Shown piece by piece: positions 4,161 to 57,667 of a DNA stretch of 64,000 bases. The stretch lies in sequence record MN508614.1; one strand, 5' to 3'. A program made the translations under genes and the position numbers. Position 1 is the first letter of the stretch; every line of letters begins with the position of its first letter. The stretch comes from Escherichia phage ES12. Under the pieces are notes generated by a model that was not told the DNA's origin, did no database searches, and saw only the letters and a list, made by a program, of their open reading frames with translations.

Positions 4161-4189
4161 AATGAAAAAAGGACTCCCGAAGGAGTCCT
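4161..4189 (-). terminator. rho-independent terminator hairpin
   Basis: aggactcc-cgaa-ggagtcct stem-loop followed on minus strand by a U-run, immediately downstream of ORF 4194..4370. Confidence 0.6.
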
Positions 4190-4193
4190 CAAC

Positions 4194-19153: not shown

Positions 19154-19262
19154 TTTATTCTCCTTAGCAAGCTTTAATCAAAAGATATAAACAGACCAAC
19201 ATAACTGCTGCCATAATATAAGGTGCGAACATTTTCTTTTCTCCATTAGTTTTGATAGGGTA

Positions 19263-19292
19263 ATAGTATCACACTACTACCCTTCTGTAAAC
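19263..19292 (-). promoter_or_regulatory. early promoter (GTTTAC -35, TACTAT -10)
   Basis: Reverse complement GTTTAC-N18-TACTAT. Confidence 0.45.
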
Positions 19293-19701: not shown

Positions 19702-19929
19702 TTATTGTTCAATCAATCCCATGTAAAATTCTGCGTCTTCAGAATCCATACCATCACAATATTCATTAGCCATAAAGCGGGTGAGGTCTTCAAGAGGACC
19801 TTCAATAACGATTTGAATACTCCAAAACTTAGAATCTTGCACGCTTGTGATACTAAGTTCAGGATAACGATTACGAATAATTTCTTCGATATATTCAAAA
19901 TCAACGATGTCAATATCAACTTTAGCCAT
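19702..19929 (-). CDS. hypothetical acidic protein, ~75 aa
   Basis: ORF track ORF trimmed to ATG at 19929 preceded by AAAGAGGAAAA; the 5' extension would overlap the promoter. Confidence 0.45.
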
Positions 19930-19972
19930 ATTATTTTCCTCTTTAATCATCAGCAGTATTGCCGATAGTTGT

Positions 19973-20002
19973 ATAGTACCATGGAAGGACAAGGATGTAA
20001 AC
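19973..20002 (-). promoter_or_regulatory. early promoter (GTTTAC -35, TACTAT -10), part of a repeated promoter-terminator cassette
   Basis: Reverse complement GTTTAC-N18-TACTAT; flanking sequence nearly identical to 37245..37337. Confidence 0.5.
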
Positions 20003-20020
20003 CGTTTTGTGAAAAAATTT

Positions 20021-20051
20021 TTGAAATAAAAAGGGGACCTCTAGGGTCCCC
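20021..20051 (-). terminator. gene 32 rho-independent terminator
   Basis: ggggacc-tcta-gggtcccc hairpin followed on minus strand by a U-run, just downstream of gene 32 stop. Confidence 0.65.
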
Positions 20052-20073
20052 AATTAATTAGTAATATAATCTA

Positions 20074-20979
20074 TTAAAGGTCATTCAAAAGGTCATCCAG
20101 GTCTGTGTCATCAGCACTAGATGAACTGCCAGAGCTTGAGCTCATAAAATCATCTTCAGTTTTTGTATTGAAGTCATCAACATTGAATGCATCCAAATCA
20201 TCAGCAACTTTATCAGCTTTCTTAGCAGCAGTTGCAGCAGCACCGCCCATCACAGCAGTTCCCATAACTTGACCGAATTTAGTGCTCAGTTCTTCAAACG
20301 ATTTGAATTTATCTTTAGAAGTCATTTCAGAAAGGTCAACCATTTGTTCGAACAGTTCTTTCTGGAAAGATTCATCGTCAATGTTTGGAATCGCAGATTG
20401 ATTCAGGAATTTAGATTCGTCGTAGTTACTAAATCCAGAAACCTGTTTAACTTTCAGTACAAAGTTAGCACCTTCCCACGGACAAGTTACATCAACCGGA
20501 GTTTCACCCATTTCAACATCAACCGCAATCATCGCGTTGATTTTATCCCAGATTTTCTTACCGAAACGATATTTAAATACTTTACCTTCATTTTCTGGAG
20601 CAGCTGGGTCTTTTACAACAAGAATATTAGCCCAGTAAGAAGTTTTACGTTTAACAAGACTGTACTCTTTATTGTCAGTGTTGTACAGATCATTTTTACT
20701 GATGTACTGACATACTGGACAAGAATCGTAATCACCATGGGTAGATGAACATGTTTCAATATACCATTTACCATTTTTCTTGAAACCGTGATTTACAAGA
20801 ATTGCGAATGGTGCTTGTTCATCATTTTTAGACGGAAGAAAACGAATTACTGCTTGACCGTTACCCGCATTATCGAGTTTCAGTTTCCACTCGCCTTTAT
20901 CTTCAGAAGAAAAACCTTTATTGCCATTCAGTTTAGCCATTTGTGCAGCAAGTTCAGCAGTAGATTTACGTTTAAACAT
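20074..20979 (-). CDS. 32: single-stranded DNA-binding protein, 301 aa
   Basis: [49 protein letters not shown]... with acidic Ser/Asp-rich C-terminus = T4 gp32. Confidence 0.95.
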
Positions 20980-21038: not shown

Positions 21039-21671
21039 TCATAGCTGGCATAATTCGCAATACTCTGGGTCTTCGAGAGGTATCCAACCTGAGTTGAAAT
21101 ACTTTACCATCGATTTAGCAGTTGTATCAGTTATATTTATATTACCTTTAACTCTTCGCCATCCAGGAGTTTTACCGTACAGATTAGAGGATAATAATAA
21201 CACATAATTCTCGTAAGCAATATGAGATAATTTCCAAGACTCTATATTAGCTCGTGATGTTTTCCAAGGTCTAAAATCGTCACGGTTCATATAATTAGCC
21301 AATCTCATATGCTCTCTAACTTCCGGGTCTTTGGCTGGATGAGTTTCACCACTCACACCAAATCCACCACCAGCATATACCAGATTAAAATAGTCTGGAT
21401 TATCTCTGGCATTTACTTCAAGTTGGTATTTTCGTTCTGCTTCAATAACATCCAAGTCATCATCAATTTGAATTATTTTAACGCTCGGTTTTTGAAGCAT
21501 TAGCGCATTCAAAAATCTTTTTTGTTTACATGAGCTCCAGTATTCCTTTCCGGAAGAGTCATATATTATTCCATTCTCAAATGAGCAATTTAATTTACTA
21601 CCGATATAGTAGTATGGCGGAGTCTTATTTTTGACACGGTCTTCAAATGTAAACCAATATACTATATTCAT
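21039..21671 (-). CDS. segG: GIY-YIG family homing-endonuclease-like protein, 210 aa (segG-like position)
   Basis: N-terminal IVYWF...YYYIGS resembles GIY-YIG; located between 32 and 59 where T4 carries segG. Confidence 0.5.
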   Translation of the reverse strand: MNIVYWFTFEDRVKNKTPPYYYIGSKLNCSFENGIIYDSSGKEYWSSCKQKRFLNALMLQKPSVKIIQIDDDLDVIEAERKYQLEVNARDNPDYFNLVYAGGGFGVSGETHPAKDPEVREHMRLANYMNRDDFRPWKTSRANIESWKLSHIAYENYVLLLSSNLYGKTPGWRRVKGNINITDTTAKSMVKYFNSGWIPLEDPEYCELCQL

Positions 21672-23938: not shown

Positions 23939-26900
23939 ATGGCCGAGATTAAAAGAAAGTTCAGAGCAGAAGATGGTCTGGACGCAGGTGGCGATAAAAT
24001 AATCAACGTAGCTTTAGCTGATCGTACCGTAGGAACTGACGGTGTTAACGTTGATTACTTAATTCAAGAAAACACAGTTCAGCAATATGATCCAACTCGT
24101 GGATATTTAAAAGATTTTGTAATCATTTATAATAATCGTTTTTGGGCAGCAACGGATAATATTCCAAAACCTGCTGGAAATTTTAATAGAATTCGTTGGA
24201 AAGCATTACGTACTGATGCCGTATATACAACCGTATCATCTGGACCATATCAATTAAAATCCGGAGAAGCAATTTCAGTAGATACATCAGTTGGCAATGA
24301 CATTGAGTTTACTTTACCACCTTCTCCGCTTGATGGAGAAACCGTAATAATTCAAGATATCGGTGGAAAACCTGGCATAAATCAGGTTAAAATAAATTCT
24401 TCAAATCAGAGTATTGTCAATTTTAGAGGTGAACAGGTACGTTCAGTTTTAATGACTCATCCAAAGTCACAGATGGTATTCATTTTTAATAATCGTTTGT
24501 GGCAAATGTATATTGCTGATTATAGCAGAGAAGCTGCGATTGTTACTCCATCGACTGCATATCAAGCACAATCTAATGATTTTATCGTACGTAGATTTAC
24601 TTCTGCCGCACCGATTAATGTTAAACTTCCAAGATTTGCCAATCATGGAGATATCATTAATTTCGTTGATTTAGATAAATTAAATCCACTTTATCATACA
24701 ATTGTCACGACATATGATGAAACAACTTCAGTACAAGAAGTTGGAACTCATTCCATTGAAGGCCGTACATCGATTGACGGTTTCTTGATGTTTGATGATA
24801 GTGAAAAATTATGGAGATTGTTTGACGGGGATAGTAAAGCACGTTTACGCATTATAACGACTAATTCAAACATTCGTCCAAATGAAGAAGTTATGGTATT
24901 TGGTGCGAATAATGGAACAACTCAAACGATTGAACTTCAGCTTCCAACTAATATTTCTGTTGGTGATACTGTTAAAATTTCCATGAATTACATGAGAAAA
25001 GGACAAACAGTTAAAATCAAAGCTGCCGGTGAAGATAAAATTGCTTCTTCAGTTCAATTGCTGCAATTCCCAAAACGCTCAGAATATCCACCTGAAGCTG
25101 AATGGGTGACTGTTCAAGAATTAGTTTTTAACGGTGAAACTAATTATGTTCCAGTTTTACAGCTTGCTTATATTGAAGATTCTGACGGAAAATACTGGGT
25201 AGTACAACAAAACGTTCCAACAGTTGAAAGAGTCGATTCTTTAAATAATTCTACTAGAGCAAGATTAGGCGTAATTGCTTTAGCTACACAAGCCCAAGCT
25301 AACGTCGATTTAGAAAATTCTCCACAAAAAGAATTAGCAATTACTCCAGAAACATTAGCTAACCGTACTGCTACAGAAACTCGTAGAGGTATCGCAAGAA
25401 TAGCAACTACTGCTCAAGTAAATCAGAACACTACATTCTCTTTTGCTGATGACCTTATCATCACTCCTAAAAAGCTGAATGAAAGAACTGCTACAGAAAC
25501 TCGTAGAGGTGTTGCTGAAATTGCTACGCAGCAGGAAACTAATACAGGTATCGATGATACTACAATCATCACTCCTAAAAAGCTTCAAGCTCGTCAAGGT
25601 TCTGAATCATTATCAGGTATTGTAACTTTTGTATCTACCGCAGGAGCTACCCCAGCTTCTAGTCGTGAATTAAATGGTACAAATGTTTACAATAAAAACA
25701 CTAATAATTTAGTTGTTTCGCCTAAAGCACTGGATCAGTATAAAGCTACTCCAACACAGCAAGGTGCAGTAATTTTAGCAGTTGAAAGTGAAGTAATTGC
25801 TGGACAAAGCCAAGAAGGATGGGCAAATGCGGTTGTAACGCCAGAAACGTTACATAAAAAGACATCAACTGATGGAAGAATTGGTTTAATTGAAATTGCT
25901 ACGCAAAGTGAAGTTAATACAGGAACTGATTATACTCGCGCAGTCACTCCTAAAACTTTAAATGACCGTAGAGCAACTGAAAGTTTAAGTGGTATAGCTG
26001 AAATTGCTACACAAGTTGAATTCGACGCAGGCGTCGACGATACTCGTATCTCTACACCATTAAAAATTAAAACTAGATTTAATAGTACTGATCGTACTTC
26101 TGTTGTTGCTCTATCTGGATTAGTTGAATCAGGAACTCTCTGGGACCATTATACCCTTAATATTCTTGAAGCAAATGAGACACAGCGTGGTACACTTCGT
26201 GTAGCTACACAAGTTGAAGCTGCTGCAGGAACATTAGATAATGTTTTAATAACTCCTAAAAAGCTTTTAGGTACTAAATCTACCGAATCGCAAGAAGGTG
26301 TTATTAAAGTTGCAACTCAGTCTGAAACCGTGACTGGAACGTCAGCAAATACTGCTGTATCTCCAAAAAATTTAAAATGGATTGTGCAGAGTGAACCTAC
26401 TTGGGCAGCTACTACTGCGATAAGAGGTTTTGTTAAAACCTCATCTGGTTCAATTACGTTCGTTGGTAATGATACAGCTGGTTCTACGCAGGACTTAGAA
26501 CTATATGAGAAAAATGGTTATGCAGTATCACCATATGAATTAAACCGTGTATTAGCAAATTATTTGCCGTTAAAAGCAAAAGCTGCTGACGCAAATTTAT
26601 TAGATGGTCTAGATTCATCTCAGTTCATTCGTAGGGATATTGCCCAGACAGTTAATGGTTCACTAACCTTAACCAAACAAACGAACCTGAGTGCCCCTCT
26701 TGTATCATCTAGTACTGCTACGTTTGGTGGATCAGTTTCAGCAAATAGTACATTAACTATTTCTAATACTGGAACGGCAACTCGTCTGATTTTTGAGAAA
26801 GGACCTCAAACTGGAACAAACCCAGCTCAAACGATGACAGTCAGAGTGTGGGGAAATCAATTTAGTGGGGAATCAGACACAACACGTTCTACCGTATTTG

Positions 26901-36236: not shown

Positions 36237-36872
36237 TCACAGTTCAGATGCTACAGTGATTACAGCTTCAATGTTTTCTGCCGAGCGTTTAATGTCAAGA
36301 TACACATTACCGTTTTTAGCGATTTTACATGACATTCCGATATCAGTAAATTTCTGAATATGATGTTCCATCATTTTGTATCCAAAAATTCGCATATTTC
36401 CATTATTGTTAATTTCAAAATTACGAATTCCGTGAGTGCGTTTTTCTAAAATAGCAAGATAGTTACTGCGGTAAGTTTCAACCTTTTTAAGAACAAATCC
36501 ATTTTCATCTAAAAGTTTTAGCATAAGGTCTTTATCTTCTTCCATATCGGAAGTAATCTCACGAGCTTTACGAGTTGCTCGTTTTTTCAGTAGTTCAGGA
36601 GCATTTTCCTGTGCGTATAAAGTTGCTGCATTTGAAATAATATCCTGAGCTTCACCAGTAATGATTAATCCATCACCAGATTTCTCCACCAGGCCTTTTT
36701 TAATCAATACCCCAATATTACTATTAACTACTGCGTTACCTAAATCTGGATGCACCTCACGAACTTCTGCGGCTGTAATGAAATCTTTCTTAGCAATGGT
36801 AATTAAAATCGCAGCAGTTTTTTCATTCAGAACATCGTTAGAAGCTTTGATGATGTAAGTTACTTTAGACAT
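36237..36872 (-). CDS. motA: middle-transcription activator, 211 aa
   Basis: MSKVTYIIKASNDVLNEKTAAILITIAKKDFITAAEVREVHPDLG... = T4 MotA. Confidence 0.9.
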   Translation of the reverse strand: MSKVTYIIKASNDVLNEKTAAILITIAKKDFITAAEVREVHPDLGNAVVNSNIGVLIKKGLVEKSGDGLIITGEAQDIISNAATLYAQENAPELLKKRATRKAREITSDMEEDKDLMLKLLDENGFVLKKVETYRSNYLAILEKRTHGIRNFEINNNGNMRIFGYKMMEHHIQKFTDIGMSCKIAKNGNVYLDIKRSAENIEAVITVASEL

Positions 36873-36977
36873 TTTAATCTCCGTTTCAGTTCATTTATTT
36901 GATAGGTCTATAGTATCATGTTTAAAGCAGAAGTAAACACTTTTTTGCACTCTTTTTCAAGAGCTCTAATAAAGTAC

Positions 36978-37205
36978 TTACTTAATGTTCAGATTACGAA
37001 CTTCGATTTCGTCTTCATGGGCAAAATCAAACTGTTTGAATTCTGTGTCACCTTTAAATTTAAAAATCATTGTGAAGAAAGTCAGAACACCAGGTTTTTC
37101 TTCACGAACTCCACAGATATCATATTCAATACCATCTACAACCAGTTTGTTAGCAGTCAGAGCATTTTTAGCTTTAACGATTTCGTTTTCGATTTTAAAT
37201 TTCAT
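36978..37205 (-). CDS. hypothetical protein, 75 aa
   Basis: ORF track; ATG start. Confidence 0.5.
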   Translation of the reverse strand: MKFKIENEIVKAKNALTANKLVVDGIEYDICGVREEKPGVLTFFTMIFKFKGDTEFKQFDFAHEDEIEVRNLNIK

Positions 37206-37254
37206 TTTTTGTATCTCCGGGTTGTTTGTTTCAGTTCATTTATTTGATAGTTGT

Positions 37255-37284
37255 ATAGTACCACAGTATGCTTTGGTTGTAAAC
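37255..37284 (-). promoter_or_regulatory. early promoter (GTTTAC -35, TACTAT -10), second copy of the repeated cassette
   Basis: Near-identical to 19973..20002 region. Confidence 0.5.
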
Positions 37285-37305
37285 CGTTTTGTGAAAAAAT
37301 TTTTG

Positions 37306-37335
37306 AAATAAAAAAGGGAGAGCCTCGGCTCTCCC
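37306..37335 (-). terminator. rho-independent terminator
   Basis: gggagagcc-tcg-gctctccc hairpin followed on minus strand by a U-run. Confidence 0.65.
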
Positions 37336-37340
37336 TAAAA

Positions 37341-37490
37341 TTACTGCATGACTGTGATAACTGTCATGATAACACGTTGAATTCCGAACGCAAGAAGACC
37401 TCCTGCTACGGCAGGAACAACACCTAAACCCGCCAGTAAAATGCCACCAGATACTAATGCAGCGCTTGTGATACCAATGAATGGACTCAT
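37341..37490 (-). CDS. small membrane protein, 49 aa
   Basis: Hand-translated MSPFIGITSAALVSGGILLAGLGVVPAVAGGLLAFGIQRVIMTVITVMQ; ATGA overlap with gene 52 stop. Confidence 0.45.
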   Translation of the reverse strand: MSPFIGITSAALVSGGILLAGLGVVPAVAGGLLAFGIQRVIMTVITVMQ

Positions 37491-40251: not shown

Positions 40252-40365
40252 TCACATAAATCCAAAGTAAACGTTTAATACATCAATCATTAAAACGATT
40301 GGGAATATACTCAAAACTATTAGTATTATAACTACATTCCATATAGCTTTAATAATCTTTTTCAT
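40252..40365 (-). CDS. small membrane protein, 37 aa
   Basis: ATG at 40365 preceded by GGAGG; MKKIIKAIWNVVIILIVLSIFPIVLMIDVLNVYFGFM. Confidence 0.4.
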   Translation of the reverse strand: MKKIIKAIWNVVIILIVLSIFPIVLMIDVLNVYFGFM

Positions 40366-40393
40366 TTTCTGTTCCTCCGTAGTTGATAGGGTA

Positions 40394-40423
40394 ATAGTAC
40401 CACGGAAGAACAGTCTTGTAAAC
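40394..40423 (-). promoter_or_regulatory. early promoter (GTTTAC -35, TACTAT -10)
   Basis: Reverse complement GTTTAC-N18-TACTAT. Confidence 0.45.
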
Positions 40424-40608
40424 AACTTTTTTAAAAATATTCGTAATAAATGTGAATACCAACTACTACCGCTGAAACCTGTGCAACCCACCACGCACAA
40501 GCAATAAGTACAGAATTCAAAATTTTCATAATAACCTCATTACAAAAGTAAATGTTAAACAAATTACTGGAATACTAATTAACCAAACAAAACACCACCA
40601 TAATGAAC

Positions 40609-40872
40609 TCATAGTTCAATCTCAACGATTTCCAAGTGTTTTTGTTTTATTGCCTTTTTAACACAATCATGGACTAAATATGACCATGAATCATTATATT
40701 CTCCATTAACTAATCGTTGGAGATCTTCACGTGATGATAAGTAAGGTTGATCTGATTCCCATTTTGATAAAAATACTGCAGTAAAAATATCTCCTTCATC
40801 TGTAGTTGAAGTCGTAAATGCAATAAATTCACCGGTAATTTTATGTTTAACGTAAAAGAACTTAAATTTCAT
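40609..40872 (-). CDS. hypothetical protein, 87 aa
   Basis: ORF track; ATG start; leader identical to that of the 37-aa ORF. Confidence 0.5.
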   Translation of the reverse strand: MKFKFFYVKHKITGEFIAFTTSTTDEGDIFTAVFLSKWESDQPYLSSREDLQRLVNGEYNDSWSYLVHDCVKKAIKQKHLEIVEIEL

Positions 40873-40900
40873 TTTCTGTTCCTCCGTAGTTGATAGTTGT

Positions 40901-40930
40901 ATAGTACCACGGTCCTTGTGATATGTAAAC
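40901..40930 (-). promoter_or_regulatory. early promoter (GTTTAC -35, TACTAT -10)
   Basis: Reverse complement GTTTAC-N18-TACTAT. Confidence 0.45.
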
Positions 40931-40947
40931 TGTTTTATGAAAATTTT

Positions 40948-41505
40948 TTAAATGGAAAGATACCATCCGCTGTAGTTGCTTTTTCTTACAACTTTACGAA
41001 GGTCTTCTCTGTCACCGATGAACTTCGGAGTGTACTGGATGACACCTGGATGAATTTCTTTAGTGTTGAATATAATTATACAGTCGGCGACTTGATAATT
41101 TAGAATGGGCCCTAGATTTATTCCAGAACCATATGGATACTCTCCGCTGCATCCTGTTGTTACAGAAATCCAACGTGAGTCAGTTTGATGTGTCTTAACT
41201 TCTACGCGAAGCCCACAGTATTTTGGATGTGCTAAAACATCCCATGCATATGTGTACGGATCATCGACATCTTCTTGGCCTTTATTGACATATCCGCTTA
41301 GCCAATCTGCCACAAAAAACTCTGCGTACACAGCGATACGGCATCTTTCGATAACTTCTGCCTTATCCTGATTTGGGTTTTGTTTTAAAGAGTATCTTGC
41401 AGTATCAGCAATTTTGACCTTCATTTCACTAGTCAAGTCACTGTTCGATAGGGTAAATGACGGAATCTGAAATAGTCTCTGCAAACCCGGATTCGTTTTC
41501 TGCAT
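40948..41505 (-). CDS. denB: endonuclease IV, 185 aa
   Basis: 185-aa ORF MQKTNPGLQRLFQIPSFTLSNSDL... between ndd cluster and rIIB as in T4. Confidence 0.8.
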   Translation of the reverse strand: MQKTNPGLQRLFQIPSFTLSNSDLTSEMKVKIADTARYSLKQNPNQDKAEVIERCRIAVYAEFFVADWLSGYVNKGQEDVDDPYTYAWDVLAHPKYCGLRVEVKTHQTDSRWISVTTGCSGEYPYGSGINLGPILNYQVADCIIIFNTKEIHPGVIQYTPKFIGDREDLRKVVRKSNYSGWYLSI

Positions 41506-41560
41506 TTAAACTTTCCTTTTATGTCTGAATCACTGGTATTCATATAATAAATCATAATTT

Positions 41561-41587
41561 CTCTTAAAACAAAAGGGCCGAAGCCCT
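41561..41587 (-). terminator. hairpin terminator downstream of rIIB-distal ORF
   Basis: agggc-cgaa-gccct hairpin with U-rich tract on minus strand; identical hairpin repeated at ~41797. Confidence 0.45.
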
Positions 41588-41591
41588 TATT

Positions 41592-41786
41592 TTATTTGAA
41601 TTGTGCAATTCTTTTCTCTAGACATTCAGCATAAGATTTCATTGAGATGAACTGTGAAAGTAGCAGTTCTTGCTCAACTGCACTAACTGTTAGAAACTTT
41701 GCGCTTTCTAAAAATTTGCTCAGTGCATTAATTTTGAGCATTAATTGATCGTATTCTTCTTTTACTCGTGCTTGATAACCTAACAT
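41592..41786 (-). CDS. hypothetical protein, 64 aa
   Basis: ORF track; ATG start. Confidence 0.5.
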   Translation of the reverse strand: MLGYQARVKEEYDQLMLKINALSKFLESAKFLTVSAVEQELLLSQFISMKSYAECLEKRIAQFK

Positions 41787-41814
41787 AATTTTCCTTAGTT
41801 AAGGGCCGAAGCCC

Positions 41815-42753
41815 TTATTTAAATTGTTCAGTAACGTCTTCAACTACTTCGTATTGGCAGGTACGCATTTTAGCATCGTTGTAATCAATCGGAATTGATA
41901 CTACATCGCGAGGATGAACCTTAACTTTTACAACTCGGCTGGTTGAACTGCCAAAGTGACGAATATAAGATTTAGAACACACATGCAGACCACGAGAACA
42001 AGTTTGTGTATCATCGTCATTCACACGAGTACGTGGCATTTTAACTACTTTACCCGGACTGTTATCAAAGGTGTTTGAGTGACAGTCAAAGTAATTGCTG
42101 CGAACTACTTTCCAAGCATAGAAGTAGCCATCTTCTGTAATTTCAATATCATTTGCTACCAAGAAATCAAAGAGTCGAGATACCGCTTTTTGGCTTGGGT
42201 TTTCCAGCAGATTTTCCAAGAACGGAAAATAAAATTCAAAGTTTTCACCTTTTTCCATCGAGTCGAGAATACGATCAACCAAACCAGATCGCAATTCAAT
42301 ATTTTGATAGAACAAGCTTCCACCTTCAATTCGAACATCACCGGAAATATATTTTTCAACAGCGCGACGAACATTAATTTTTTGTGCCGCTTCTTCCAAC
42401 TTATCCGCTACAAGCAGATTAAGAATTTCCTGGAAGTTTGAATGAGTATTAGGAGTTGCGTTATAAGTTACACCATCAACAGTAATTGAAATGAATTTTT
42501 TAGATGCATTCCAAATAATGTCAGATTTAGCAACTGGAGCAATAACTGCATCGCTATTAACTTTAACTGTAATATCACCACTAATAGTAACTTTAGGGCG
42601 TTTAGCTTCTTCAGCATTTTTCAAAACACGACGGATTGTGTCAACCGATACATCCTTCCAATAAGCTAATTCCTGCTGAGTGTAATTACCACTTGAATAC
42701 AGTTTAACAATTTCAGCTTGTTCGTTTTTGGTCAGGCATTTAATATTGTACAT
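41815..42753 (-). CDS. rIIB: rIIB membrane-associated rapid-lysis protein, 312 aa
   Basis: MYNIKCLTKNEQAEIVKLYSSGNYTQQELAYWKDVSVDTIRR... = T4 rIIB. Confidence 0.95.
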   Translation of the reverse strand: MYNIKCLTKNEQAEIVKLYSSGNYTQQELAYWKDVSVDTIRRVLKNAEEAKRPKVTISGDITVKVNSDAVIAPVAKSDIIWNASKKFISITVDGVTYNATPNTHSNFQEILNLLVADKLEEAAQKINVRRAVEKYISGDVRIEGGSLFYQNIELRSGLVDRILDSMEKGENFEFYFPFLENLLENPSQKAVSRLFDFLVANDIEITEDGYFYAWKVVRSNYFDCHSNTFDNSPGKVVKMPRTRVNDDDTQTCSRGLHVCSKSYIRHFGSSTSRVVKVKVHPRDVVSIPIDYNDAKMRTCQYEVVEDVTEQFK

Positions 42754-48551: not shown

Positions 48552-48644
48552 TACATTCTCCAAGTTTCTGTATCAGTAGTTGATATTGATATAGTACCAT
48601 AATCAACTACTGATGTATATAGTTTTATGAAAAAATTTTAAACT

Positions 48645-49136
48645 TTATGCATAGCGAGCTTTGCTGTAGTGTTTAATCCAGCTTTCAGGAATGACTTTGT
48701 ATGTTCCTAAAAATACAACGTTGTACAACTTAACGCCATCTTCTACCCATTGATCAGTAATGTATGCACACATAGCGCGAGTACGGCGAGGAAGGGGTTG
48801 TCCACCTTCGGTAAATTCAAACTCATAAGGAGCAACGAACTTAATAGCTTGACCGAGTTTCCACTTAAAGTCTACACCTACATGCGAAGTATCAATCGTT
48901 TCAATTCCTTTAGCGGGAACAGCTTTCAAAAACGCAGGCTCAAGAAATTTCCATCGAACATAACCAAACTGAGGTTTAGACATTCCATCTTTAGGAATGA
49001 TACGCACTTTTACTTCAGAATCTTCATCTTTAACACCGTGTTTAAGCTGAATGCTTACGACTTCAACCAATTTTCCTGCTGCTTTAGAACGGGATTTATC
49101 AGATACACGAGCCAATTCACCAATATTAATAATCAT
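48645..49136 (-). CDS. hypothetical protein, 163 aa (paralogue A)
   Basis: ORF track; shares C-terminal TDQWVEDGVKLYNVV motif with next ORF. Confidence 0.55.
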   Translation of the reverse strand: MIINIGELARVSDKSRSKAAGKLVEVVSIQLKHGVKDEDSEVKVRIIPKDGMSKPQFGYVRWKFLEPAFLKAVPAKGIETIDTSHVGVDFKWKLGQAIKFVAPYEFEFTEGGQPLPRRTRAMCAYITDQWVEDGVKLYNVVFLGTYKVIPESWIKHYSKARYA

Positions 49137-57595: not shown

Positions 57596-57625
57596 ATTAT
57601 ACCACACTCATTTTGACATGTAAAC
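57596..57625 (-). promoter_or_regulatory. early promoter (GTTTAC -35, TATAAT -10)
   Basis: Reverse complement GTTTAC-N18-TATAAT. Confidence 0.45.
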
Positions 57626-57629
57626 CATA

Positions 57630-57658
57630 AAATGAAAAAAGGAATCCCGAAGGATTCC
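57630..57658 (-). terminator. soc rho-independent terminator
   Basis: ggaatcc-cgaa-ggattcc hairpin followed on minus strand by a U-run, directly after soc stop. Confidence 0.65.
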
Positions 57659-57667
57659 TTAAATTAT

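Follow-up and report, generated by a model that had tools for sequence, protein, structure and literature searches.

Terminator and early-promoter units at gene boundaries of a T4-like phage genome as likely recombination patches

Introduction

The short region after gene 32 of Escherichia phage ES12 joins a GC-rich hairpin to an early promoter. An earlier note on this DNA, made from the sequence alone, had claimed that almost the same segment recurs after the gene 52 region, that similar blocks lie at several further intergenic sites, and that together they look like mobile regulatory cassettes marking recombination junctions around accessory genes. The locus thus raises three questions: how far the copies are really alike, whether the likeness goes beyond what early promoters share as a class, and whether the units themselves move or are places at which other DNA is exchanged.

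The window referred to below is the whole 64-kb stretch of DNA that was analysed. It is 100% identical to Escherichia phage ES26 and belongs to Tequatrovirus, the genus of T4. The annotated Tequatrovirus phage vB_EcoM_ASO78A is 99.8% identical to the window at the site tested, and for the part of the genome around the gene 32 site its coordinates equal those of the window. Our comparison set comprised seven Tequatrovirus genomes, namely the window, T4, RB3, EC121, W143, KIT03 and G3G6.

Results

Two composite units follow gene 32 and motA.1

Every early gene treated below is encoded on the minus strand. The genes around the two principal sites are:

20074-20979, minus strand: gene 32 (single-stranded DNA-binding protein), whose stop codon adjoins site A
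19702-19929, minus strand: frd.3, with a match to Pfam PF05798 and its ATG at 19929
21039-21671: segG, next to gene 32
37341-37490, minus strand: motA.1, upstream of site B
36237-36872, minus strand: motA, with its ATG at 36872

Site A (19964-20051) occupies the space between the gene 32 stop and the frd.3 start, and site B (37246-37336) that between motA.1 and an open reading frame of 75 amino acids (ORF75), after which motA is the next gene. Site A had rightly been labelled as following gene 32; the position of site B is more exactly after motA.1, which follows gene 52. Read in the direction of transcription, the parts of the two sites are:

20033-20051, minus strand: site-A stem-loop GGGGACC-CTAGA-GGTCCCC followed by a run of five T, found by the terminator scan (-14.3 kcal/mol) and identical in T4; predicted intrinsic terminator of gene 32
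20003-20032, minus strand: site-A T-tract and A/T-rich UP-element block (AT fraction 0.80), the same as at site B
19973-20002, minus strand: site-A early promoter core, with -35 GTTTAC at 20002-19997, an 18-nt 'type 1' spacer at 19996-19979 ending in TGG, and -10 TACTAT at 19978-19973
19930-19972, minus strand: site-A conserved post -10 block ACAACTATC, leader and Shine-Dalgarno sequence AAAGAGGAAAA, up to the frd.3 ATG
37315-37336, minus strand: site-B stem-loop AGGGAGAGC-CGAG-GCTCTCCCT followed by a run of six T, found by the terminator scan (-19.0 kcal/mol, z=-4.4); predicted terminator after motA.1
37255-37314, minus strand: site-B T-tract, UP block and early promoter, with -35 at 37284-37279, spacer AACCAAAGCATACTGTGG and -10 at 37260-37255

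Both elements that had been claimed for these sites, an early promoter of the form GTTTAC-N18-TACTAT on the minus strand (20002-19973 and 37284-37255) and a rho-independent terminator upstream of it, were located at A and at B. The annotation by the ASO78A authors agrees: it gives site A an early promoter of T4 type (19973-20002) and a rho-independent terminator (20016-20051), and it has a terminator also at the site-B homologue. The 25 nt upstream of the promoter are 80% A+T at both sites (60-88% at the other early promoters), and the 3' end of each unit carries a Shine-Dalgarno sequence and start codon, AAAGAGGAAAATAATATG for frd.3 at site A and CCCGGAGATACAAAAAATG for ORF75 at site B. The site-B spacer AACCAAAGCATACTGTGG is specific to its locus and invariant in the seven genomes. 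Searched against Rfam, the whole window gave no family at the gathering score.

T4 carries both units, and the UP, -35 and -10 blocks are identical between its two sites. The T4 early promoters and the gene 32 terminator were reportedly described by Miller and colleagues in 2003 and by Prentki and Krisch in 1984. A T4 site-A fragment that extends from inside the promoter spacer, through the terminator and into the end of gene 32 is found at 100% identity, twice each, in three plasmid records; such copies would fit the use of this terminator in the Omega interposon.

The likeness of the two sites exceeds chance and promoter consensus

A repeat search of the window aligned 19964-20037 with 37246-37319 at 86% identity over 74 nt, and the repeat claimed for 19965..20052 and 37245..37337 is thus real. 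It contains one exact block of 37 nt (19996 / 37278) and one of 18 nt. No other exact direct repeat in the 64-kb window is as long as the 37-nt block; in 20 mononucleotide shuffles of the window, the longest repeat had a mean of 16 nt and a maximum of 19. Self-alignment, the check that the earlier note had named with chance similarity as the refuting outcome, hence sets the A/B pair above shuffled sequence.

We located 20 early promoters in the window from the pattern GTTTAC, 17-18 nt, TAnnnT with A/T-rich sequence upstream; one of the 20 has ATTTAC as its -35. An in-register comparison of all 190 pairs set A/B furthest apart from the rest: over the 66 nt that end at the -35 its z was 5.3, and overall it was 4.3. 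Because the pair is both the longest exact repeat and the top outlier, its similarity exceeds chance and also exceeds the long consensus of the promoter class. The description of the copies as almost identical is too strong, since the likeness comes in blocks. By block, the sites agree at 30/30 positions in the T-tract and UP element, 6/6 in the -35, 9/18 in the spacer (the average over all early-promoter pairs in the window being 36%), 6/6 in the -10, 9/11 just after the -10 and 5/20 in the leader, and the hairpin stems are unrelated (GGGGACC...GGTCCCC at A and AGGGAGAGC...GCTCTCCCT at B).

Such a pattern could arise from regulation alone, if selection had driven these promoters toward one optimal UP/-35/TGn/-10 arrangement; the shared blocks would then have no role in recombination, and polymorphism near them would be coincidental. 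T4 early promoters do have an unusually long consensus, having been termed 'uber UP/-35/TGn/-10' promoters with extra consensus positions, and MotA is an early product (Hinton 2010, PMC2988021). It also agrees with this explanation that the identical blocks are exactly the functional parts, with the spacer free, that the copies at 61-66% identity described below are near the family background, and that the cassettes are orthologously fixed. However, the 30-37 nt of exact identity between A and B cover positions that are free in the other early promoters of the window, and the spacer exchange and the ORF75 island described below bear on the same point.

A site-A query matches about five places per Tequatrovirus genome. 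Separately, a pattern scan of IMG/VR for the two conserved blocks returned only seven loci from five contigs; these were too few to survey their gene surroundings, and we took them as extra alleles.

Site-A spacer alleles match a distant promoter

In the seven Tequatroviruses, the flanks of site A are near-invariant, and between them the 18-nt spacer occurs as at least three unrelated alleles. Between the window and T4, site A agrees at 8/18 positions in the spacer, 29/30 in the UP block, 11/11 after the -10 and 18/20 in the leader. The window's site-A spacer matches at 17/18 that of the T4 e.8 promoter, which in T4 lies about 76 kb from site A and falls outside the window. For G3G6, the agreement of site A with T4 e.8 is complete in the spacer (18/18) and comprises 53 identical nt in all. 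The likeness of site A and e.8 runs upstream into the hairpin loop and its 3' arm (CCCTAGAGGTCCC vs CCCTAGAATTCCC) and therefore points to common descent of the two as whole units. T4 site B, compared with e.8, matches at 11/11 after the -10 and at 14/20 in the leader. Each promoter block thus has its own pattern of relatedness, as recombination among paralogues produces. The UP blocks of A and B give a mixed picture within single genomes: the window, T4 and KIT03 have the same block at both sites, RB3, EC121, W143 and G3G6 do not, and the variants are mostly changes in homopolymer length. Selection for promoter strength does not predict a spacer swapped to 8/18 identity between matching flanks, nor that the new spacer should equal the e.8 spacer at 17-18 of 18 positions.

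A match in RB69 that might have suggested a further locus for the cassette is in fact the orthologue of the T4 e.8 promoter.

For site A only, a homing endonuclease might account for the spacer patch, if SegG cut in gene 32 and the repair copied DNA flanking the cut from a co-infecting phage. Cleavage of gene 32 by SegG, with co-conversion of flanking markers, is documented (PMC2988022), and segG adjoins gene 32 in the window and is absent from EC121 and KIT03. Co-conversion copies allelic sequence, however, and while it may spread an allele, it cannot create a spacer equal to that of the e.8 promoter. Nor do the spacer types track the endonuclease gene: type 1 is found in the window, RB3 and G3G6 (with segG) and also in EC121 (without it), and type 2 in T4 and W143 (with segG) and also in KIT03 (without it). 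We regard co-conversion as a very unlikely source of the patch and favor exchange between promoters at different loci.

The family extends to weaker copies and to a second full pair

The repeat search also gave lesser copies at 40385-40458 (62%), 40892-40965 (66%) and 48582-48655 (61%). These had been noted as similar -10/leader blocks, and they are indeed early promoters of the A/B family; the upstream GC hairpin is missing from all three. The further promoters and hairpins are:

40901-40930, minus strand: promoter C (denB / ORF87), of the same family, with no upstream GC hairpin and with a polymorphic gene slot downstream
40394-40423, minus strand: promoter D (ndd.5-like / ndd.4-like), an early promoter
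48591-48620, minus strand: early promoter whose -35 is degenerate (ATATAC) and whose -10 is bracketed by a 13-bp inverted repeat; its leader is CTACTGATACAGAA
4110-4190, minus strand: full terminator and early-promoter cassette, with hairpin GGACUCC-UUCG-GGAGUCC at 4169-4190 (-15.4 kcal/mol) and promoter at 4139-4110
57596-57660, minus strand: partner of the 4.1-kb cassette, with hairpin GGAAUCC-UUCG-GGAUUCC at 57639-57660 (-12.7 kcal/mol) and promoter at 57625-57596
41573-41588, minus strand: hairpin GGGC-UUCG-GCCC with a C(UUCG)G tetraloop, after the denB.1 homologue, with a weak T-rich tail
41800-41817, minus strand: the same GGGC-UUCG-GCCC hairpin, after rIIB, with no T-run on the mRNA strand

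Promoters C and D show the same block-wise relatedness in another combination. Their leader, Shine-Dalgarno sequence and ATGAAA form an exact 30-nt match (40360-40389 in D and 40867-40896 in C), and the leader agrees at 20/20 positions; the UP block agrees at only 15/30, and the spacers differ. The leader of the 48.6-kb promoter, CTACTGATACAGAA, is that of the T4 motA and e.8 promoters (16/20 match). Inverted repeats bracket the -10 box in a third of the window's early promoters, and among the seven genomes, all of them close relatives, their arms show no variation.

Full hairpins with a T-run precede four of the about 20 early promoters in the window (A, B and the promoters at 4.1 and 57.6 kb). 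Over 39 nt, the hairpin regions at 4.1 and 57.6 kb have 90% identity, and pairing in the stem is preserved by a compensatory change from C/G to A/U. ASO78A has a promoter and a terminator annotated at the homologue of the 4.1-kb cassette. This second pair of full cassettes had been missed in the earlier note.

The identical hairpins reported at ~41574 and ~41797 do share 20 nt exactly. The first lies at 41573 as given, and the second lies at 41800, 3-4 nt from the reported position. These two are unlikely to be terminators, because only the copy at 41573 has even a weak T-rich tail, and they are probably elements of RNA stability or processing. The gene between them, denB.1, is present in every genome checked, and the pair therefore marks no known polymorphism.

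The ORF75 module is bounded by promoters

Presence or absence of genes between cassettes in other T-even genomes had been proposed as a further check, and at site B the comparison revealed such a polymorphism, with its edges in promoters. The parts of the module are:

36978-37205, minus strand: ORF75, a 75-aa accessory early gene of family phrog_10955 (unknown function), the cargo of the promoter-bounded module
37228-37263, minus strand: distal 36-nt direct repeat (-10 and leader), which contains the left junction with genomes that lack ORF75, after CTATCAA
36883-36918, minus strand: proximal 36-nt direct repeat, directly upstream of the motA Shine-Dalgarno sequence and ATG (36872)
36910-36938, minus strand: second early promoter, now ahead of motA, GTTTAC-N17-TACTAT of 'Dhakavirus type', with a weak degenerate stem-loop at about 36947-36966 before it

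The two 36-nt repeats are 92% identical and 345 nt apart, and the stem-loop before the 36938 promoter (-6.4 kcal/mol) is not significant. For ORF75, and likewise for ORF87 discussed below, the only matches were to PHROG families of unknown function, with none in Pfam or PADLOC; ORF75 had no match in the PDB.

Five of the six Tequatroviruses compared with the window (T4, RB3, EC121, W143 and KIT03) lack the module and G3G6 has it, and both alignment breaks of the indel fall inside early promoters. About a quarter of Tequatrovirus-like records carry ORF75 (137 at no less than 95% protein identity, against about 497 matching the locus at 95% or more). W143 has a different change at this position, a perfect 64-bp tandem duplication of the site-B promoter.

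More distant phages place the same gene in similar surroundings. Against Dhakavirus IME281, window positions 37267-36880 form an island of 92-100% identity, with a background in genes 52 and motA of about 75-76% overall and about 50-85% per 60-nt window. The island begins within the -10 block of the promoter upstream and runs as far as the motA Shine-Dalgarno sequence and ATG, and within IME281 the two promoters flanking the ORF75 homologue are near-identical (93% over 56 nt). Gelderlandvirus S16 has a 63%-identical homologue between nrdC.11-like and nrdC.10-like genes, again between two early promoters, where the repeated -10, leader and Shine-Dalgarno sequence comprise 40 nt at 98% and 30 nt at 90%. 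Jiaodavirus K65 has a 70%-identical homologue near tRNA genes, between two early promoters with a 19-nt repeat. ORF75 thus occurs at different loci, always in a promoter-bounded slot, and the gene has therefore moved. An island that starts and ends in promoter and leader sequence also counts against regulatory similarity as the full explanation, which we consider unlikely in view of this island, the swapped spacer and the length of the exact A/B match.

Simple excision of ORF75 through the 36-nt repeats was considered and rejected: the leader of the ORF75-less allele, CTACTGATACAGAATT, is unlike both leaders in the window, so that excision would not yield the T4/RB3 allele. From the alignments, a double crossover with a donor genome during mixed infection would fit best, better than integration of a mini-circle, and the implied crossovers would lie in the -10 block on the left and in the motA Shine-Dalgarno/start region on the right.

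These junctions also bear on whether the cassettes could be the ends or attachment sites of a dedicated mobile element, similar to integron attC sites or miniature transposons and acted on by a recombinase or nuclease that recognises the hairpin. The authors of the PeSL work speculated that the GGGG...CCCC stem is a protein target (PMC2839356); the hairpins are stable, and the stem at 4.1 and 57.6 kb has been kept by compensatory change. Yet the junctions lie in the -10 and leader and not in the hairpin, their position varies by genus with the length of the repeats (19-70 nt), and the hairpin sequences of A and B differ. The module sequences contained no target-site duplications or terminal inverted repeats, there was no recombinase gene with or next to the modules of the kind that a site-specific cassette would have, and in S16, K65 and IME281 ORF75 is flanked by promoters of the type found locally. 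A dedicated element of this kind is extremely improbable.

Cassettes are resident, and some breakpoints fall in promoters

We compared window positions 19000-42760 (23.8 kb) with the six other genomes, excluding tail-fibre genes. Five structural differences were found: a 71-bp leader deletion by the frd.2/frd.1 promoter, segG, ORF75, the ORF87 slot and an internal deletion near denB. In this small sample, three of the five have breakpoint edges inside early-promoter windows, which cover about 4% of the stretch. The ORF87 slot downstream of promoter C holds ORF87, RB3_270 or a remnant, depending on the genome (window, RB3 and T4, respectively). Indels without cassette involvement also occur nearby, in the form of internal ORF deletions, segG and tail-fibre swaps.

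The lack of ORF87 in T4 was examined as a promoter-mediated indel and rejected, as an 8-codon remnant indicates internal deletion. A 110-aa ORF is intact in 215Ecol030PP, and the window and T4 both have an internal deletion in it.

The cassettes themselves are fixed orthologous features in every Tequatrovirus examined, and in the seven genomes their spacers and hairpins are specific to their loci; they therefore reside stably at their loci, and exchange seldom occurs. Across the roughly 485 records covering site A, there was no polymorphism in gene content at the site. The proposal of mobile cassettes at recombination junctions is thus supported, with limits. The edges of ORF75, the slot of promoter C and the site-A patch do mark junctions, but the cassettes stay in place and no gene has come or gone at site A. 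As judged from these alignments, the cassettes are sites of exchange and do not themselves move.

Discussion

Given the observed anatomy, conservation, mosaic pattern and junction positions, we consider it likely that these are composite regulatory units whose shared blocks serve as recombination patches. Their first role would be to insulate transcription at gene boundaries and to restart it. The hairpin and T-run would end the upstream transcript (gene 32 at A, motA.1 at B), and directly after the hairpin a strong early promoter for host sigma-70, with UP element, GTTTAC, an 18-nt spacer ending in TGG (extended -10) and TACTAT, would start the next one. The conserved first transcribed bases, a short leader and a ribosome-binding site would then lead into the next small early gene. 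The units at A, B, 40.9, 40.4 and 48.6 kb and e.8 form one paralogous family with exact blocks of 18-37 nt in common, and homologous recombination by the phage could use these blocks as short homology patches. Three outcomes of such use are visible: promoters at different loci have exchanged patches, single-gene modules with a promoter on each side have been gained, lost or replaced, and a promoter has been duplicated in tandem. Activity of the predicted promoters and terminators in this phage, and the recombination pathway itself, are parts of the proposal that we infer.

A wider version can be put forward tentatively. The promoters may act as a 'socket' across genera, such that single-gene modules like ORF75 move among Tequatrovirus, Dhakavirus, Gelderlandvirus and Jiaodavirus and land at different promoters, while the promoters are re-assorted block by block (UP/-35, spacer, -10/leader). 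The inverted repeats that bracket the -10 might help to target such exchange. This extension is possible, and we lean against it at present.

The closest known system is the PeSL. For T4 and PST, it has been described as an AT-rich region with TTTACW-N17-TAYWAT, a stem-loop just upstream, and a Shine-Dalgarno sequence and ATG at the 3' end (Comeau et al. 2014, PMC4122927). The crossovers mapped at PeSLs fall in the interval from the -10 to the SD/ATG (Arbiol et al. 2010, PMC2839356), and mini-circles were demonstrated only in RB49/phi1 (PMC2839356). At the level of sequence, our units have the PeSL features: a stem-loop terminator, AT-rich DNA, an early promoter and an SD/ATG, in many copies, by small accessory ORFs and bounding indels. 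The form GTTTACA-N17-TACTAT found here fits the T4/PST consensus, which also occurs at 40930, 40423 and 36938, and the ORF75 junctions lie in the published crossover zone. Copies with weak hairpins or none (40423, 40930, 36938 and 48.6 kb) correspond to the 'degraded or half' PeSLs, and the T4/PST exchange illustrated in the ndd.4/.5 region lies inside our window (PMC4122927). The PeSLs of RB49/phi1 differ in two respects. Their promoters are near-perfect TTGACA/TATAAT, not the T4 type of sites A and B, and their stem-loop usually overlaps the -35 and -10 boxes or is placed between them, where sites A and B have a classical terminator upstream.

Since the units match what was published in 2010-2014, the finding is already known, and our result leaves the knowledge of PeSL-type elements unchanged. 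What it adds are further examples, namely the cross-genus ORF75 island, the patch from e.8 to frd.3 and the W143 duplication. In an independent genome, and with many more relatives than in the original papers, the units coincide with the edges of exchanged accessory genes. The ORF75 island and the e.8-to-frd.3 patch are clean cases for short-homology recombination in T4-like phages, and for annotation, tandem early promoters with a small ORF between them are a useful sign that this ORF may be an accessory gene of recent acquisition.

Compared with T4 itself, site A is the orthologue of the gene 32 terminator and frd.3 promoter, and site B that of the motA.1 terminator and motA promoter, with few differences outside the A spacer and the B leader. 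The window differs from T4 in having another spacer allele at A and an extra gene and promoter at B.

The morons of lambdoid phages, described by Hendrix and colleagues, are as a rule prophage-expressed genes that probably enter by illegitimate recombination. Like them, ORF75 is one accessory gene that has its own promoter and a weak stem-loop, is placed between two conserved genes and is found in varied places across phages. It differs in being an early lytic gene, and its ends coincide with repeated promoter/leader homology. The analogy with integrons, drawn in the PeSL work (PMC2839356), applies insofar as both systems exchange small single-gene units at structured sites that recur within a defined part of the genome. 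Integron cassettes, however, are promoter-less and need an integrase that recognises a folded attC, whereas here the site is itself a promoter, no integrase is present and the crossovers are variable.

A further cassette pair and variants of the motA.1 terminator hairpin

The cassette list of the earlier note needs to be extended, as a further pair of terminator and early-promoter cassettes was missing from it. The hairpins of this pair are as follows.

4169–4190: cassette hairpin, GGACUCC/GGAGUCC stem, UUCG loop
57639–57660: cassette hairpin, GGAAUCC/GGAUUCC stem, UUCG loop

The two hairpins differ by a compensatory double change, and the T-tract and TTCATTTT that lie 3' of them are the same in both copies. 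At the cassette joining the motA.1 terminator to an early promoter, the centre of the hairpin (hairpin at 37315–37336, with homologues in the relatives L010, L011, L023, and L025) reads CCGAGG, CCTCGG, CCTTGG or CCTCAG, depending on the genome. The first two are reverse complements of each other, which fits the expectation of template switching within a quasi-palindrome. In W143 (L023, 17160–17290), the whole motA promoter is perfectly duplicated in tandem; the 64-bp unit spans the T-tract to the first leader bases, and the copies have no intervening ORF. This duplication is either a genuine product of unequal exchange or an assembly artefact.

The gene 32–frd.3 neighbourhood

In the Mosigvirus RB69 (L020, 334–561), frd.3 is not adjacent to gene 32 but lies in the e.6–e.8 cluster near tRNA genes, indicating that frd.3 itself changed locus between genera. 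RB69 frd.3 has its own early-type promoter upstream. The homing-endonuclease gene segG (21039–21671) adjoins gene 32; it is found in the window, T4, RB3, W143, and G3G6, and EC121 and KIT03 are without it. Three conjugative plasmid records (AJ297913, NC_007635, and NZ_CP017779) each carry two copies, at 100% identity, of a 116-bp piece of T4 (L004, 1525–1640) that starts inside the frd.3 promoter spacer and takes in the gene 32 terminator. Omega-type interposon markers are probably the source of these plasmid copies.

Small early ORFs and other features of the window

Two small early ORFs have undergone internal deletions among the relatives, leaving in-frame remnants: an 87-aa ORF (40609–40872) is cut to 8 codons in T4 (L005, 4498–4525), and a 110-aa ORF (L002, 9942–10271) is shortened both in T4 and in the window (41433–41555). 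These deletions are not promoter-mediated. The denB.1 homologue (41592–41786), flanked by two UUCG hairpins, matches Pfam PF21825, a crAss001_48-related protein (E = 4e-19); the family takes its name from a crAss-like phage. Gene 34, encoding the proximal long tail fibre, contains diverged internal direct repeats of 29–68 nt spaced 108–681 nt apart (25340–26265), which presumably correspond to structural motifs that recur in the fibre.

Inverted repeats bracketing the -10 box

In many early promoters of the window, the -10 box is bracketed by an inverted repeat, the -35/-10 spacer being complementary to the bases directly 3' of the -10.

48578–48614 (48.6-kb promoter): 13-bp inverted repeat
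3747, 7832, 19292, 23893, 4139, 61549: further promoters with such repeats

At least six perfect pairs form between the spacer and the bases that follow the -10 in 7 of the 21 promoters, against an expectation of 8.6% when spacers are paired with the downstream segments of other promoters (permutation p ~0.001). The inverted repeat at 19247–19283 is carried as a terminator in the annotation of phage ASO78A. We know of no earlier description of such repeats in T-even phage promoters. They resemble those subclasses of promoter-early stem-loop (PeSL) cassettes of RB49 and phi1 in which the stem-loop overlaps the -10.
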